Source: an uncultured Gammaproteobacteria bacterium
Lineage (GTDB): Bacteria > Patescibacteriota > Microgenomatia > JALYQM01
Reading direction: 5' to 3'
Assembly: GCA_964525495.1 (NCBI GenBank)
Contig: CAZGHS010000001.1
Coordinates: forward strand, 10,863 to 74,862
Length of the DNA stretch: 64,000 nt
The position numbers were made by a program, and so were the translations under genes. The stretch's first letter is position 1. The number at the start of each line of letters is the position of its first letter. Positions 10,105 to 26,110 of this stretch are shown here, piece by piece. The notes under the pieces are model-generated. The model made no database searches and had not been told where the DNA came from. It saw only the letters and a program-made list of their open reading frames with translations.

Positions 10105-11199
10105 CTAGTCACAATATTTATAAAGTACAGGAACTGTACATCCCATCCCCTTACATACTTCATCAGAATATTTTTTATTAAGTTCAGCATAAACTTTACA
10201 CATATCATCACCTTTATTACGATACAAACACTCAATAACTGGTTGCACGTTAGGACAACTACCACATCCTCCGTGCTGAAACCCTGTCATACTACATGAC
10301 ACAGGCATAGCAGTGGGTTTAGGAGTCGGAGTAGCAATAACTGGTTGATATACATCTACTACCTCATCATCCTTCAGTGTACTTGGATATTTCCTTAAAT
10401 AAGCAGTAAAGATTCGACTCATATCTGTTTTTACTTTATTCCCACTAACATAAACAACATAATTTCCACTTACCCATACATACCGATCTCCAAACTGACC
10501 TTCCTTAACCACATATACTATATCTTTACCAATTTTTGTTTTCTTGGCTGGATCATTAAATAGATTAAGTAAACTCATCATCTCTTTTATTGTTTTATCT
10601 CTGTCTGGACGCTCCTTTACCTGAACACTAGCTATTGGAGATCCTGAATCAAGAAGAGAGTAGCCAACAGAATAGTCCATTCCTCCTAAATATGCAGGGT
10701 ATGCATAAAAACTATCAATTTGCAAATTAAATCCATACAATATGAATATCTGTTCAACACTTTTACCGCTATTCTGCTTAAACTCCATATTAAAGGCACT
10801 AATTAACTTAAACTGATTTATAGCAAATGCAATGAAGGACTGAATCATGGGCACAAAACAAATTATTAAAATAACAATCAAGAATTTCTTTAATTTCTGA
10901 GGATCAAAGCGCCGCATAAACGAAAAAATAATGCAGGCATAAACATACAGCAAGGCAGTATTCCCAATAACACCTGCAGTTTCGTTAATCCTACCAACTG
11001 AGATGTAAACAGGTAAAAAAATAAATGTGAATATATTTGCTAAAGTTATGAAAATACTACTAGAACATCCTAAACTGAGTGCACAACTAAACATCATTCC
11101 TAGTGAAAAAATGTTCACATAGTTAGCCAAAATACATAAAATTATGAAAATAAGTATTGTAAAAAACGTGGGTTTAAAGAATGAAACAAGCCTATTCAT
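10105..11199 (-). CDS. Polytopic membrane protein with a Cys-rich C-terminal extracytoplasmic domain
   Basis: Five or more hydrophobic helices in the N-terminal half. The C-terminal roughly 70 aa contains 10 Cys (CSMTGFQHGGCGSCPNV...CKGMGCTVPVLYKYCD). Confidence 0.5.
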   Translation of the reverse strand: MNRLVSFFKPTFFTILIFIILCILANYVNIFSLGMMFSCALSLGCSSSIFITLANIFTFIFLPVYISVGRINETAGVIGNTALLYVYACIIFSFMRRFDPQKLKKFLIVILIICFVPMIQSFIAFAINQFKLISAFNMEFKQNSGKSVEQIFILYGFNLQIDSFYAYPAYLGGMDYSVGYSLLDSGSPIASVQVKERPDRDKTIKEMMSLLNLFNDPAKKTKIGKDIVYVVKEGQFGDRYVWVSGNYVVYVSGNKVKTDMSRIFTAYLRKYPSTLKDDEVVDVYQPVIATPTPKPTAMPVSCSMTGFQHGGCGSCPNVQPVIECLYRNKGDDMCKVYAELNKKYSDEVCKGMGCTVPVLYKYCD

Positions 11200-16398: not shown

Positions 16399-17958
16399 CT
16401 ACCTGACAAAAAACTTCCACCAAGCCTTCCGCGGCTGTACGGAAGTATGCGCCAACTCCCCGTATCCCAAACTCGCAGCATATTCCTCTTCGGTTTGAGG
16501 TGGAATATAGCGTGCCAGTATCTCCCCATCCTCTTCCTCAAGTATCAATTGTCCAGGGTTCAATAGCCCACAATGATGTGCGCCTCCAGCTCCCCCAAGC
16601 ATCTTCTGGTAGGCTCCCACACACGCAAATACCACGAGCTGATCATCAGCATCAGGCAGGACTACAAATTTCTCCTCAGCATTTTTTGAGGGATATCTCC
16701 CGTCGGAGTCACACGTCAGATCTCCCAGCACATATCGAGATGATGTCTCGTTACCATTATTACCAGCCAATACAGGAAATTTCTTTTTCGTAATAAACAT
16801 ATCGGGTAGCTCTGCCATCAAACCACCATCCACGATAGCCCATCGTAAATCACCTTCATTGTCACTCACAGAATTATGCTTACGCTGCAAAACCCGATGC
16901 ACGAGGAATCCAGATTCATCAGTCAAAAAGCTCCCAAACTCAAATACCACAATGGGCGCCTCACAACCATACTCTACTGCCATCCGATTAATACCACTCA
17001 ACAAACGCTGTAGATACACATCATAGTCATACCCGGAAGCGAGCGGAGGAATCCCCCCACCCACGTTCAGATACTGCAGACTCGGATATTGTTTCTTCAA
17101 TTCAAAATATTTTTCAGCACCATACAACAAAGACATGACCAATTCATCGATCGGCACAACTTCAGCTGCAGACACCATCATATGCAACATTTTCAGCTGC
17201 AAATTTTCCGCCTTATCCACTACCCGAGCCACTTCACTTATCTCATCCCACGACATACCATGTCGCGACACACCTCGAGCCAGATGCTCATCATCATGAA
17301 CAATGCCAAACTTCATCCTCAAACCCACATCCATCGTGCCGTTATCTATCTGCTCCGCAAAATATTCTACTTCACCAGCATCCAAGATCGGCATAATATG
17401 AAAGCCAAGTTTAAAAAGCTTCACTATATATTCAGCGTACAAATAAGGCAAAGGGACAGTCGCCTGACCATCATTCACAAAAGTAATTCCAGTACTGGCA
17501 TTGTCCTGATCCGATACCTGAGAGAGAACAGGAAATTTAAATCCATTACAGATAATTGGAAGGCCATAACCTATCAGTCCTTTTTGGTGCAGCTGAAGAA
17601 TATGTACCAGATCCTGAGCAGAGCTTGTCTCAGCAAGCCACCCTTCCCTATATGCATTCAATACATAAGACAAAGCCATATTAGCTTTAGACGCATAAAA
17701 CAACGCAAAATCACCGGTATATTCAACATCTTTAGCAATCTCGCGAATCTTTTCCCGCCAATACACCGCCCGTTGCTTCATAATGCCCATATCGTGGATC
17801 TCAAGCGGAGTACCATATTTTGCAACCGCGTCCTTCACCCGCAACTTATTTATCCACAGATCACCGTGCTCATCGTATCTCAGATAATCTCGCAGATGGC
17901 TGCCAGACAAAAAGTTCTGAATTTCAGACACATAGGATTGAGATGGAGAGAGTTTCAT
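16399..17958 (-). CDS. PLP-dependent decarboxylase of the Orn/DAP/Arg decarboxylase (alanine-racemase fold) family
   Basis: KYGTPLEIHD then FYASKANMA (the YAxKAN PLP-lysine motif) and a Gly-rich region. 519 aa. Confidence 0.55.
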   Translation of the reverse strand: MKLSPSQSYVSEIQNFLSGSHLRDYLRYDEHGDLWINKLRVKDAVAKYGTPLEIHDMGIMKQRAVYWREKIREIAKDVEYTGDFALFYASKANMALSYVLNAYREGWLAETSSAQDLVHILQLHQKGLIGYGLPIICNGFKFPVLSQVSDQDNASTGITFVNDGQATVPLPYLYAEYIVKLFKLGFHIMPILDAGEVEYFAEQIDNGTMDVGLRMKFGIVHDDEHLARGVSRHGMSWDEISEVARVVDKAENLQLKMLHMMVSAAEVVPIDELVMSLLYGAEKYFELKKQYPSLQYLNVGGGIPPLASGYDYDVYLQRLLSGINRMAVEYGCEAPIVVFEFGSFLTDESGFLVHRVLQRKHNSVSDNEGDLRWAIVDGGLMAELPDMFITKKKFPVLAGNNGNETSSRYVLGDLTCDSDGRYPSKNAEEKFVVLPDADDQLVVFACVGAYQKMLGGAGGAHHCGLLNPGQLILEEEDGEILARYIPPQTEEEYAASLGYGELAHTSVQPRKAWWKFFVR

Positions 17959-23101: not shown

Positions 23102-23839
23102 CTACATAAACCCATTCTCAGCCAAACTCAAAAAAGAATTCTTCGCCACAATCACATGATCCACCACAGATATACCCATTATCACACCAGCATCAACCAA
23201 TCGCTTAGTGATCTCAATATCATCATCACTCGGATCACACACTCCAGACGGATGATTGTGTGAAACTATCACTTGCGCCGCATGTCGGCGTATCGCTGCT
23301 TCAAACGTCTCGCGTGGGTGAATAATATTCGCAGTCAAAATCCCCACCGCAATCACATCCATACCCAAGAATTTATTCCGCACATCGAAGGACAAAACCA
23401 CAAAATGTTCCTTAGATTCCTGAGAAATTTTAGATTTAACCAAGCGATACACATCCGACGGCTTCATCACTACTTCATTATCATCAAGTCGCACAGCGCT
23501 CACGCGCCTCACAATCTCTAAACACGCTTTCAACTGAGTCGACTTCGCAACACCCAAGCCCCGCATCTTCTGAAGATCCGCAATCGAAGCATTCAAAATA
23601 TTTTCTAGAGATCCAAAATGGGATAAAAGTTTCTGCGCTGTAACAAGCACCGATTCGCCCTGAATACCACGTCCTAACACCAATGCCAAAAGTTCCTGAG
23701 AAGACAAAGCCTCTGCACCATGCGCAATCATCCGTTCACGAGGTCGTTCGTTCTGGGGCAGATCACGTACAGTAAAACTAGAACTCATTTTTTCTTTGAA
23801 ATCAAAATTATACCGATCAAGATCAACGCAACCGGCCAA
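23102..23839 (-). CDS. radC: RadC-family JAB/MPN domain protein
   Basis: JAMM motif HNHPSG and an N-terminal HhH-like region. 245 aa. Confidence 0.75.
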   Translation of the reverse strand: MAGCVDLDRYNFDFKEKMSSSFTVRDLPQNERPRERMIAHGAEALSSQELLALVLGRGIQGESVLVTAQKLLSHFGSLENILNASIADLQKMRGLGVAKSTQLKACLEIVRRVSAVRLDDNEVVMKPSDVYRLVKSKISQESKEHFVVLSFDVRNKFLGMDVIAVGILTANIIHPRETFEAAIRRHAAQVIVSHNHPSGVCDPSDDDIEITKRLVDAGVIMGISVVDHVIVAKNSFLSLAENGFM

Positions 23840-24294
23840 AAATCTTCCATGTCAAAGAATCCAAATCCAATATTAGAATTTCGCAAAAGGAAAAATACAC
23901 CAAAGACAATCAGTATAAGTGCAAAGACTCCACCACTACTATTTGCCGGTCCTTGGCCCGTCACAGACTGTACAACCTTTGTTGCCTTCTCTTTCATATC
24001 TGTAACCACATCACCAAGTCTATCGGCTGATGCGGTATCTGCATCGGCTTCTTCAGGCATCACGATCCAAAGCAAAATATAAACCAAAATCCCAGATCCA
24101 CCCATTAACGTAAACAACACGAATGCGATACGAATAATACTTGGATCAATTTCAAAATACTCGGCAAGTCCAGCGCATACACCTGCAATCATTTCATTCT
24201 TTTCAGAACGATATAATCGCTTTTTAGGCACCTGTTTCTCTTCTGTTTCCATATATCCGCTCCTCCTAAAAAGAGTATATCCCCTATCAATCAT
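23785..24294 (-). CDS. PspC-domain membrane protein
   Basis: MIAGVCAGLAEYFEIDPSIIRIAFVLFTL is a PspC-domain signature. Two TM helices. Confidence 0.6.
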   Translation of the reverse strand: MIDRGYTLFRRSGYMETEEKQVPKKRLYRSEKNEMIAGVCAGLAEYFEIDPSIIRIAFVLFTLMGGSGILVYILLWIVMPEEADADTASADRLGDVVTDMKEKATKVVQSVTGQGPANSSGGVFALILIVFGVFFLLRNSNIGFGFFDMEDFWPVALILIGIILISKKK

Positions 24295-25113
24295 CTATAC
24301 AACAATATCCCCAACAGACAGCTCCAAGATTTTTGAAGCATTGGCACCTTGCACCGTGATTTCCAAGAATCGCTTATCCTCAATACCTGAGCTTCCGATC
24401 ATTACAGCTTTCTCTCGATCAGGCACATCCTTCAATCGAGCATAGCATCCGAGTTTTCCAATTTCAGTTTCAAGTGAAGAATCTGCTTTAAAGCCAACTT
24501 CTTCCGGCAATATCGTTGTCTTACAGTTTCCAAAATTATCTACAAACCACACAGCCAGTGGCGCATCAATTACTTCATCAACCGACATAACTTCGGCAGG
24601 CACTTCTCCACCCTGCACCAAATAAGCACCGACGCGAGGAGTGAAATCAAAACTACGGAACTGAGTAGTCTTCACATGCTCTGAGACTTCTTTACTGACC
24701 ACACCTTTTACAGCCAAATGATCCATTACTGTCGGCACATCCATGACATGAATCTCTTTAGCAACTCCAAGTTTCTTTACCAAAGACAAAGCCAAACCAT
24801 CAATCGAAGAAATAACCAACGTCTCCTTATACCAAAAATATCCAAACGGAGTTCCGTTAGGCCATTTCTTACCCTTTCCATGCCTATGAGCTACGTTAAC
24901 CAACACTACACCCTTCCGACCTTCAGCTGCATCAAGTACATCGATCAGACAACCTGCTGCTTCCAATTCAGCGCTCGTAAATTCTTCATTTATATTCAAT
25001 TCATGAGTCACACCAACAAAAGTAGGGTTAATACCCAAAAGTGAGGCTACTCGAGTACTCTGGCGACCTATTGCGTCATAATCCTGACAGTCGTTAATAA
25101 TTGTGCAAAACAT
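24295..25113 (-). CDS. DUF62 family protein (SAM hydroxide adenosyltransferase / fluorinase-chlorinase family)
   Basis: N-terminal TIINDCQDYDAIGRQSTRV and a C-terminal region with IGSSG...LEITVQGANAS match the two-domain DUF62 pattern. 272 aa. Confidence 0.55.
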   Translation of the reverse strand: MFCTIINDCQDYDAIGRQSTRVASLLGINPTFVGVTHELNINEEFTSAELEAAGCLIDVLDAAEGRKGVVLVNVAHRHGKGKKWPNGTPFGYFWYKETLVISSIDGLALSLVKKLGVAKEIHVMDVPTVMDHLAVKGVVSKEVSEHVKTTQFRSFDFTPRVGAYLVQGGEVPAEVMSVDEVIDAPLAVWFVDNFGNCKTTILPEEVGFKADSSLETEIGKLGCYARLKDVPDREKAVMIGSSGIEDKRFLEITVQGANASKILELSVGDIVV

Positions 25114-25255
25114 ATTTGCTCCTTTCTTATCTAAAACTAAAAAAGCCTCCCGATTACTCTGGAGGCTGCTATTTCTACATCAAATGATGTGATTAGGCAC
25201 CCCTCCTAGCCGGAAGGCTTCGCATACCCATCATGTTGTTTATAACTAACATAGG
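25114..25255 (-). promoter_or_regulatory. Promoter, roughly 130 nt structured leader and intrinsic terminator upstream of the DUF62-pspC-radC operon; candidate riboswitch or attenuator
   Basis: On the minus strand there is a -35 TTGCTT, a 17-nt spacer, a -10 TATTAT, and then a leader with P1-like AUGAUG/CAUCAU enclosing GGUAUGCGAAGCCUUCCGGCUAGGAGGGGUGCCUAAUCA. A hairpin AGCCUCC-AGAGUAAUCG-GGAGGCU plus a U6 run follows, 30 nt before the start codon. GGAGG in the leader can pair alternatively with CCUCC of the terminator. Confidence 0.45.
25137..25168 (-). terminator. Intrinsic terminator inside the leader (minus strand)
   Basis: agcctcc/ggaggct stem with a U-run downstream on the minus strand. 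It sits between the promoter and the start codon rather than after a gene. Confidence 0.55.
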
Positions 25256-25482
25256 CTCATAATACTACAACACCGCTACAAAAGCAAAATTCAAAGCAGG
25301 TTTGCAAAAAAGCCTATAGAATGATAACATGCGTCTTGTTTTCCTAATTGCAGCCAAATGCTGAGTTTTAAGAAAACATGAACCTTAACACGATTTGTGA
25401 TTCATTTTCCCTTACTTTATAGTCTCTTTAAGCCGATATAGTCATATCGTTTTCAAGGGGCTATAAAGTCAATCGCAACAAC

Positions 25483-25899
25483 ATGAAAGGGGCTGCCACA
25501 ATCATGGACGACACAGTCGAAACCTCACAGCAGGCAAGAGCAATCAAATTTGTACGTGAACGACTCAGTGAAGCGAGAAAAAAAGGAGTGTCTGTAGACG
25601 AACTAACTCAAACGGTCGGCACGCAATTTCCTGAGATCGTGGGCCGTAAATTCGGACCGGTCCTCGTCGGAGTTAGGGCACGAAAACATGAGGGCCGATA
25701 TTATCTCTCTGAGTACTTTCCCACCACGCCACCACCAGCCGAGCCTTCAGTCCGAAACTACGAACTACCCTCAATGTCAGTTACAGTAAAAGAAGGCAGA
25801 AAAAAGATCTACGAAGGGCCCGCCAGCAAGGTTACAATCTATCCGCCTGGACACAATAACAACAACACACCACCCACTCGGCGGCGCGGCAGCAAATAG
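25483..25899 (+). CDS. Hypothetical basic protein
   Basis: 138-aa ORF with no motif. The C-terminus is Pro/Arg rich. Confidence 0.35.
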   Translation: MKGAATIMDDTVETSQQARAIKFVRERLSEARKKGVSVDELTQTVGTQFPEIVGRKFGPVLVGVRARKHEGRYYLSEYFPTTPPPAEPSVRNYELPSMSVTVKEGRKKIYEGPASKVTIYPPGHNNNNTPPTRRRGSK

Positions 25900-26036
25900 G
25901 AACGCAAATCGTAATTCGTAGAAAAAAACACTACAGTCCGGTAATTCATTACTTGGAAGGTCGTGTCGAATAACTACGAATCGGGGGATATGCAATATAC
26001 TTAAAAAGTATAAAACATATCCCCTTAGATATATTG

Positions 26037-26110
26037 TCGGAGCGAGAAGACTTGAACTTCCAACCTCTTGCACCCCATGCAAGCGCGCTAGCCAATTGCG
26101 CCACGCCCCG
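26037..26110 (-). tRNA. tRNA-Pro (anticodon GGG)
   Basis: The reverse complement is CGGGGCGTGGCGCAATTGGCTAGCGCGCTTGCATGGGGTGCAAGAGGTTGGAAGTTCAAGTCTTCTCGCTCCGA. Acceptor 7 bp, D-arm GCGC/GCGC, anticodon loop ATGGGGT with G37, T-loop TTCAAGT. Confidence 0.8.

Follow-up and report, generated by a model that had tools for sequence, protein, structure and literature searches.

A candidate methionine-codon leader-peptide attenuator upstream of a divergent DUF62-like gene in Patescibacteria

The locus considered here lies on the minus strand of a 64,000-nucleotide (nt) stretch of DNA (henceforth, the window; positions 10,863 to 74,862 of contig CAZGHS010000001.1 in GenBank assembly GCA_964525495.1), in which a gene for a divergent DUF62, or S-adenosylmethionine (SAM) hydroxide adenosyltransferase-like, protein is preceded by a promoter, a leader and an intrinsic terminator, and is followed by genes for PspC and RadC. 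An earlier note on this DNA had seen in the leader a riboswitch or attenuator geometry, with a P1-like stem (AUGAUG/CAUCAU) around a GC-rich core; it overlooked a short open reading frame (ORF) from an ATG at 25252 to a TAA at 25193, and the AUGAUG of its P1 5' strand is the pair of methionine (Met) codons 7 and 8 of this ORF. From the sequence and its comparison with orthologous loci, the element is considered likely to be a ribosome-mediated leader-peptide transcription attenuator keyed to Met codons. The features of the leader and of the gene behind it, all on the minus strand, are as follows.

25287-25282 (-): -35 box TTGCTT, read from the sequence; the box and its 17-nt spacer are kept in the orthologous loci L098, L103 and L105
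25264-25259 (-): -10 box TATTAT, separated by the 17-nt spacer from the -35 box and lying 6 nt 5' of the leader ATG
25252-25193 (-): leader ORF of 19 codons plus TAA, MLVINNMMGMRSLPARRGA, read from the sequence
25234-25223 (-): putative regulatory Met codons 7, 8 and 10 (ATG ATG GGT ATG), from the Met-cluster enrichment upstream of orthologues
25219-25212 (-): region 1, AGCCUUCC, which pairs with region 2 or, alternatively, with region 4
25210-25196 (-): region 2, GCUAGGAGGGGUGCC, the antiterminator 5' strand, inside the leader ORF and just 5' of its stop codon
25191-25175 (-): spacer hairpin CACAUCAUUUGAUGUAG, from folding; holds the CAUCAU at 25189-25184
25170-25158 (-): region 3, AGCAGCCUCCAGA, which pairs with region 2 in the antiterminator and with region 4 in the terminator
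25166-25139 (-): intrinsic terminator, GCCUCC-AGAGUAAUCG-GGGAGGC at 25166-25145 followed by U6 at 25144-25139; stem-loop of -12.0 to -12.2 kcal/mol
25125-25119 (-): Shine-Dalgarno sequence AAAGGAG of the DUF62-like gene, lying 3' of the terminator and not involved in the alternative pairings
24295-25113 (-): divergent DUF62 / SAM hydroxide adenosyltransferase-like protein of 272 amino acids (aa), with a Pfam match to SAM_HAT_C only (E = 3e-7)

The leader ORF reads ATG TTA GTT ATA AAC AAC ATG ATG GGT ATG CGA AGC CTT CCG GCT AGG AGG GGT GCC TAA, and its Met codons follow the pattern MMxM, with MMxMM, MMMxMM and similar patterns in the leaders of other loci. The promoter described in the earlier note is present as -35 and -10 boxes on the minus strand, but without a canonical TGn extended -10; the -35 box matches the consensus at only 3 of 6 positions and is therefore unlisted by a consensus promoter scan. 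The arrangement TTGCTw-17-TATTAT is nevertheless retained in the close relatives L098 and L103, and in L105, where it stands 9 nt before the ATG. Among 27 leaders with a scorable sigma-70-type promoter, the distance from the -10 box to the leader ATG is exactly 6 nt in 16 and 7 nt in a further 4, and no Shine-Dalgarno sequence precedes the leader ATGs of the orthologous leaders that were inspected; because of this spacing and the missing Shine-Dalgarno sequence, the leader ORF is probably translated from a leaderless or nearly leaderless mRNA. None of the alternative pairings involves the AAAGGAG of the DUF62-like gene, and this speaks for control at the level of transcription and not by sequestration of a ribosome-binding site.

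Several structural claims of the earlier note stand as they were made. The AUGAUG (25234-25229) and CAUCAU (25189-25184) enclose exactly 39 nt; the intrinsic terminator, placed about 30 nt 5' of the start codon, ends its stem 31 nt and its U-run 25 nt before the DUF62-like ATG at 25113; and the AGGAGG tract can indeed pair with the terminator 5' arm, GGAGG at 25206-25202 being complementary to the CCUCC of that arm in a 2:3 duplex of -13.3 kcal/mol. Region 2 is also given by the segment GGAGGGGUGCC in the 3' part of the ORF after region 1. The other pairings of the window are a 1:2 hairpin of -10.3 kcal/mol, a 3:4 terminator of -12.2 kcal/mol and a 1:4 duplex of -15.5 kcal/mol, and the minimum-free-energy fold of the free RNA is an extended 1:4 + 2:3 structure. 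The 142-nt stretch 25114-25255 folds more stably than all 200 of 200 dinucleotide shuffles (z = -3.0). The sequence-level features of an attenuator are all found here, namely an ORF with start and stop codons, a codon cluster for one amino acid, a terminator, a mutually exclusive antiterminator and the appropriate spacing.

Orthologous loci were collected from genomes (17), from metagenomes (80) and around the closest homologues (9). Metagenome-assembled genomes of Patescibacteria, under the labels Uhrbacteria, Falkowbacteria, Paceibacterota, Saccharibacteria and Colwellbacteria, supplied the homologues, together with a few bins labelled 'uncultured Gammaproteobacteria' or 'Pseudomonadales', whose labels outside the Patescibacteria may be artefacts of binning or labelling. 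With a leader defined as a short ORF containing at least 3 ATG in 5 consecutive codons within 300 nt upstream of the gene, such an ORF, with 3-6 clustered Met codons, was found at 45 of 98 loci, the window included. The density of Met clusters is 1.59 per kb on the sense strand upstream of the gene vs 0.038 per kb elsewhere in these loci, counted on both strands, a 42-fold difference that serves as the unbiased test, and the antisense strand of the upstream regions holds a single match. When a Met-rich ORF of at most 40 codons was combined with a hairpin and U-run within 110 nt and sought on both strands of all loci and the window, 42 matches were obtained, and 40 of these stand directly upstream of a DUF62 gene; a terminator follows the Met-rich ORF in essentially all leader-bearing loci.

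The leaders themselves, of which 46 are unique, range from 14 to 32 codons, for example MKIYSVNMMEMMTS, MTHLKTTMMNMMSTP, MKKNSKKIMMGMMSTV and MTHVAFMMFMMATALPRA, each followed by its stop codon, and a large group shares the form M..Q.R..MMMxMMTLKNEGTFSHT before the stop. Met makes up 20.4% of the internal codons of the unique leaders vs 1.0% in the DUF62 orthologues, and the internal ATGs number 199 in frame vs 8 out of frame; both counts are inflated, since leaders were picked for their Met clusters. The stop codon keeps its position in the alignment while its identity varies (TAA 25, TAG 15, TGA 6), and the close relatives of the window keep the frame through 3-nt indels, as in L098, whose DUF62-like protein is 89% identical (MLVANNSMMDMRSLPARRGA), L105 (MIKSVMMMGLMRSLPPRRGA), L099 (MFNSSMMMNLMRGLLTRRVV) and L103 (MIISVSMMSMMMPPGGEV). 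In-frame ATGs, a varying stop codon and frame-preserving indels together make the ORF look translated. Outside the pairing arms the sequence is wholly different between clades, and the in-frame Met cluster, the start and the stop are always kept.

Three observations on individual leaders stand apart from this comparison. In L104 (L104:1030-1200) the leader is decayed, its ORF being cut to MFNVCM and a stop, with no Met cluster, and the CCUCC/GGAGG terminator is kept; this may have been an attenuator whose sensor has since been lost. In L106 a long inverted repeat, each arm of which has about 38 nt (GCAAAAGGACAGAACAGTGGCATTTCGCAGCTCCGACT ... AGTCGGAGCTGCGAAATACCACTGTTCTATCCTTTTGC; L106:1033-1200) lies between the leader terminator and the DUF62 start, and looks like an inserted element of the miniature inverted-repeat transposable element (MITE) type. 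In the largest subgroup (columns 25-36 of alignment A3, e.g., L035:1047-1058) the residues T-L-K/E-N after the Met cluster are kept, with the Leu codon varying among TTA, TTG, CTT and CTC, which reflects either selection on the peptide or a weak CCUU:AAGG pairing between regions 1 and 2.

The competing pairings were examined without an alignment by comparing the terminator 5' arm plus 8 nt upstream with the segment that starts at the last Met codon and runs slightly beyond the stop codon, dinucleotide shuffles serving as the control and the terminators of 7 loci, which the automatic finder had missed or mis-called by picking the antiterminator or the 1:2 hairpin, being set by hand. The complementarity of that segment has a mean z of -3.0 and reaches p <= 0.05 in 30 of 42 unique leaders; typically, the first paired base comes 11-15 nt past the last Met codon, a distance close to one ribosome footprint, and the pairing is complete before the stop codon is reached. 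Covariation was measured in a subgroup of 19 sequences (alignment A3), where 94.7% of the cells of the terminator are paired, both sides differ in 6 of its pairs and 0 of 500 shuffles reach its score, and 84.6% of those of the antiterminator are paired, again with 6 both-side changes and a score equalled by 1 of 500 shuffles. Slid controls fall sharply for both helices, and the region-3 columns that the two helices share change (U to C) together with both of their partners (A to G). An alignment of the window's own clade was set aside, as region 3 fell out of register and the almost invariant arms gave no useful count.

Folding with a ribosome placed on the leader points in the same direction. 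In constrained equilibrium folding, P(terminator) is 0.8 or more in 45 of 46 leaders when a ribosome masks the stop codon, and 0.2 or less in 31 of 46 when it is stalled at some Met codon; in the window the value is 0.00 with the ribosome at Met7 and Met8, and 0.99 at the stop. Equilibrium folding fails where terminators have long A/U extensions, for the terminator then always wins, and transcripts ended before region 4 (the terminator 3' arm) were used as a co-transcriptional proxy. In these shortened transcripts the terminator 5' arm is paired upstream with a median probability of 0.87 when the ribosome is at the last Met codon vs 0.13 at the stop, and the corresponding values for the window are 0.74 vs 0.09.

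From these elements the following course of events may be proposed. The transcript would begin about 6 nt after TATTAT, at or beside the leader AUG, and where charged elongator Met-tRNA is plentiful, the ribosome would reach the UAA and cover region 2, so that region 3 (GCCUCC) and region 4 (GGGAGGC with U6) would form the terminator and transcription would stop at about 25139. Where Met-tRNA is scarce, the ribosome would stall on the Met codons (7-10) and leave region 2 free to capture region 3 before region 4 is made, and the polymerase would read through into the DUF62-like gene and, in the window's clade, also into PspC and RadC. The enzyme family to which the DUF62-like protein is related converts SAM to adenosine and L-methionine (PDB entry names; bioRxiv 10.1101/2025.08.29.672840). 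If the enzyme has this activity of its fold family (SAM + water to adenosine + L-methionine), methionine would be freed from SAM during a shortage, and a SAM-hydrolase-type enzyme, as a source of methionine, would be a sensible target for a methionine sensor. This logic of methionine starvation and methionine salvage is favoured here by a small margin over its being mistaken.

An AlphaFold2 model of the 272-aa protein (30 homologues in the input) has a mean predicted local distance difference test (pLDDT) score of 93.8, and its best 11 Foldseek matches in the PDB all belong to the DUF62 superfamily (E of 5e-12 to 3e-8, template-modelling scores of ~0.6-0.68, identity 14-19%), among them TM 2zbv, MJ1651 '(R)-SAM hydrolase', PH0463, T. 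thermophilus 2cw5, the chlorinases ClA1/SalL and the fluorinase. The modelled protein has the DUF62 / SAM-hydrolase fold; Pfam SAM_HAT_C is found in 30 of 30 members, and an invariant D192-N-F-G-N196 aligns with the DRFGN of MJ1651 (the DxFGN motif). A sequence search for solved relatives returned a weak C-terminal match only (E = 0.003), and the NCBIfam equivalog for (R)-SAM hydrolase scored 16 bits vs a cutoff of 350. The branch also has invariant residues of its own (D8, C9, D11, R17, R21, N73, R77, W84, N86 and Q151-F-R-S154), and its chemistry may differ from that of the characterised SAM hydrolases.

Behind the DUF62-like gene the operon of the window continues with two further genes.

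23785-24294 (-): PspC, by Pfam; its ATG abuts the DUF62 stop codon
23102-23839 (-): RadC, by Pfam; the listed TTG start overlaps the end of PspC by 55 nt (23785-23839)

For RadC an internal ATG (the Met in ...KEKMSSSF...) is more likely to be the start than the TTG. RadC lies downstream in 8 of the 77 loci with enough sequence, and only in the window's near clade; PspC and RadC were therefore rejected as conserved targets and are regarded as near-clade passengers, and the DUF62-like gene is taken to be the conserved target. The earlier note had found the regulated genes untypical of a riboswitch; as the target of a methionine sensor, a SAM-hydrolase-type enzyme would be fitting.

A number of points weigh against this interpretation. 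A shortage of methionine would limit initiation at the leader AUG as well as elongation through the cluster, and about half of the orthologues are without a leader, several of the leader-negative loci having less than 100 nt of upstream sequence. In the window, a stall at Met10 still permits the terminator (P = 0.87 in equilibrium folding), and the untranslated RNA takes the read-through 1:4 + 2:3 form, with P(terminator) = 0.04. The 2:3 complementarity of the window alone is not significant (z = -0.8), because its G-rich segment pairs with CCUCC even after shuffling, and in the window's clade the four arms are nearly invariant (CCUCC/GGAGG), so that covariation there is weak. As to the enzyme, Pfam SAM_HAT_N was detected in 0 of 30 members, and the release of methionine is presumed for a protein of 14-19% identity to characterised DUF62 proteins, whose N-domain is unrecognisable by sequence.

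Among the alternatives, the one that fares best, though improbable, is a ligand-dependent arrest of the nascent peptide of the TnaC or plant CGS1 type, in which high methionine or SAM would stall the ribosome and the enzyme would be induced by excess. Its architecture of short ORF, terminator and antiterminator would be no different; an enzyme that degrades SAM could sensibly be induced by its substrate; and selection on the peptide could explain why the post-Met residues of the large subgroup (T-L-K/E-N-E-G) are kept with synonymous changes of the Leu codon. However, known arrest peptides require a specific conserved sequence, and the peptides here share the Met cluster alone across clades (compare MMGMRSLPARRGA, MMEMMTS and MMMAMMTLKNEGTFSHT); runs of 3-6 codons for one amino acid, as found in these leaders, are the hallmark of hungry-codon sensing; and, since the conserved residues after the Met cluster are encoded by sequence that overlaps regions 1 and 2, RNA pairing accounts for most of their conservation.

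Two further explanations dispense with codon sensing and appear very unlikely. The leader could encode a functional Met-rich micro-protein (e.g., metal-binding or redox-active), with the hairpin as its own terminator or as a constitutive partial terminator; the position and frame of the ORF are conserved, and terminated leader transcripts act in trans elsewhere, as peTrpL is reported to do (PMC7298713). Neither length (14-32 aa) nor sequence is conserved besides the Met cluster, however, and the ORF always stands directly upstream of the same enzyme gene; its conserved part is complementary to, and covaries with, the terminator 5' arm, for which a free-standing gene would give no reason. Equally remote is a translation-independent control in which a protein or a tRNA binds the AUG triplets in a T-box-like or TRAP-like manner and so controls the terminator. 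The triplets do repeat at a spacing of 3 or 6 nt, as TRAP-type proteins read, and the identical logic of terminator and antiterminator would apply, but this mechanism would need neither an in-frame ATG at a fixed distance, nor a varying in-frame stop behind region 2, nor frame-preserving indels; there is no match to the T-box or another Rfam family, and no tRNA-Met gene is linked to the locus, the nearby tRNAs being those for Pro, Ile, Ala, Thr, Val, Gln, Leu, Gly and Ser.

The geometry to which the earlier note pointed is borne out as that of a cis-acting leader with an exclusive terminator and antiterminator, but not as that of a riboswitch, and the comparison of orthologous leaders that it proposed found a conserved, covarying terminator and antiterminator together with a Met-cluster short ORF instead of an aptamer. 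The P1-like stem does not behave as an aptamer helix: its 3' half is CATCTT in L098 and absent in L099, L101 and L102, and at this position the large leader subgroup shows unstructured, A-rich spacer sequence; the spacer hairpin is kept in L098 despite the change from CATCAT to CATCTT. Within the GC-rich core it is the stems that are kept and the loop that changes (GGCU to ACCA in L105), the opposite of what marks an aptamer. The reported lack of a match to the SAM, fluoride and preQ1 classes was confirmed, no Rfam 15 family being found at the window leader: a scan of the window at gathering scores returned two tRNAs only, a permissive scan of 25050-25500 (E <= 10) gave a single, terminator-driven match to RcsR1 (18.9 bits vs a cutoff of 60, E = 0.18), and 20 leader-bearing and 20 leader-less orthologous loci yielded tRNA and rRNA genes but no regulatory family. 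A metabolite riboswitch, in which P1 would close a 39-nt aptamer and a ligand would choose between terminator and antiterminator, is accordingly the least credible explanation of all, even though stem, core, terminator and the AGGAGG:CCUCC alternative are all present, the fold beats every shuffle and the CGUCAU of L105 is still able to pair with AUGAUG.

The methionine-codon attenuator proposed here resembles the classical attenuators (E. coli trpL, hisL, leuL, thrL, pheL and ilvL; the Rfam Trp, His, Leu and Thr leaders) in its 5' short ORF with a codon cluster for a single amino acid, in its intrinsic terminator before the first structural gene, in its overlapping 1:2, 2:3 and 3:4 pairings, among which the position of the ribosome (on the regulatory codons or at the stop) would select antiterminator or terminator, and in a regulated gene that plausibly supplies the sensed amino acid. 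It differs from them in that it would sense methionine, in that its leader ORF is apparently leaderless and without a Shine-Dalgarno sequence, in that its target is a SAM-cleaving DUF62-type enzyme and not a biosynthetic operon, and in its hosts, which are Patescibacteria (candidate phyla radiation); moreover, the largest subgroup has a minimal 1:2 pairing (CCUU:AAGG), leaving essentially a three-region device. With tnaC it would share the control of a downstream catabolic enzyme gene's transcription by translation of a leader ORF; tnaC depends on a conserved arrest peptide, free tryptophan and Rho-dependent termination, whereas the peptides here are unconserved besides the Met cluster and termination is intrinsic. 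Control of methionine and SAM genes is known by riboswitches, T-boxes and protein regulators. The SAM, S-adenosylhomocysteine (SAH) and Met-T-box switches likewise serve methionine/SAM homeostasis through a terminator or antiterminator in a 5' leader, but the leader described here has no aptamer or T-box structure, Rfam match or ligand core, and a translating ribosome would read the signal.

Closest in style are the polycysteine attenuators of mycobacteria (Canestrari et al., bioRxiv 10.1101/834739), whose first cistron is a leaderless short ORF, as is predicted for the present leader, with codons for a single sulfur-containing amino acid in a row, and in which a stalled ribosome remodels the downstream RNA and switches on the metabolism of that amino acid. 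Besides the difference in amino acid and phylum, those elements unmask a ribosome-binding site (10.1101/834739), whereas in the present leader a terminator stands 5' of a Shine-Dalgarno sequence that is itself unpaired. In the mycobacterial polycysteine leaders, terminator hairpins had been looked for in an earlier comparative study and none was found (PMC1262725). Comparative surveys have described leaders for trp, his, phe, thr, leu, ilv and cys, with methionine controlled by S-box riboswitches (PMC1262725, PMC2965389). No methionine-codon leader-peptide attenuator was found in the literature, although many subscription-journal papers were outside reach and this absence is not proof, and no paper was found on leader-peptide attenuation in Patescibacteria. 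It is slightly more plausible than implausible that the element is the first methionine-specific ribosome-mediated attenuator, leaderless and spread over several Patescibacteria lineages, that it switches on a divergent DUF62 gene when charged Met-tRNA is low, and that this DUF62 branch recovers methionine from SAM for translation, instead of or besides the (R)-SAM repair proposed for archaeal DUF62.

If so, methionine would join the amino acids sensed by leader-peptide attenuation (Trp, His, Phe, Leu, Thr, Ile/Val and Cys), and a regulatory RNA mechanism would be gained for the Patescibacteria, which are uncultured, reduced in genome and largely auxotrophic; a tight coupling of transcription and translation from leaderless mRNAs would be suggested for them as well. 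The link of the leader to a SAM-hydrolase-like gene offers independent genomic-context evidence, suggesting that this DUF62 branch works in the methionine economy. For riboswitch hunting there is a caution, in that a sensor read by translation can show a 'P1', a terminator and a structured leader too, and a short ORF should be looked for before an aptamer is called.

Other Met-codon clusters in the window (270, 2524, 6451, 8430, 17033 and others) lie within or antisense to long ORFs and were dismissed as chance. The sole other match in the window to a Met-rich short ORF with a hairpin, at 16998-17030(-), reads MTMMCIYSVC and a stop; it is out of frame within a 519-aa ORF (16399-17958(-)) and was likewise rejected as a chance leader. 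In the neighbourhood of the locus, the DUF62-like gene often adjoins rRNA or tRNA genes on its upstream side (L001, L031, L042, L063, L103, L076 and others), as it does in the window, where the adjoining tRNA is at 26036-26110(-). A divergently oriented 138-aa ORF without a Pfam match (25483-25899(+)) takes up most of the interval from the leader promoter to tRNA-Pro; it contains, on the minus strand and 3' of the tRNA, a hairpin that resembles a terminator (25888-25866).

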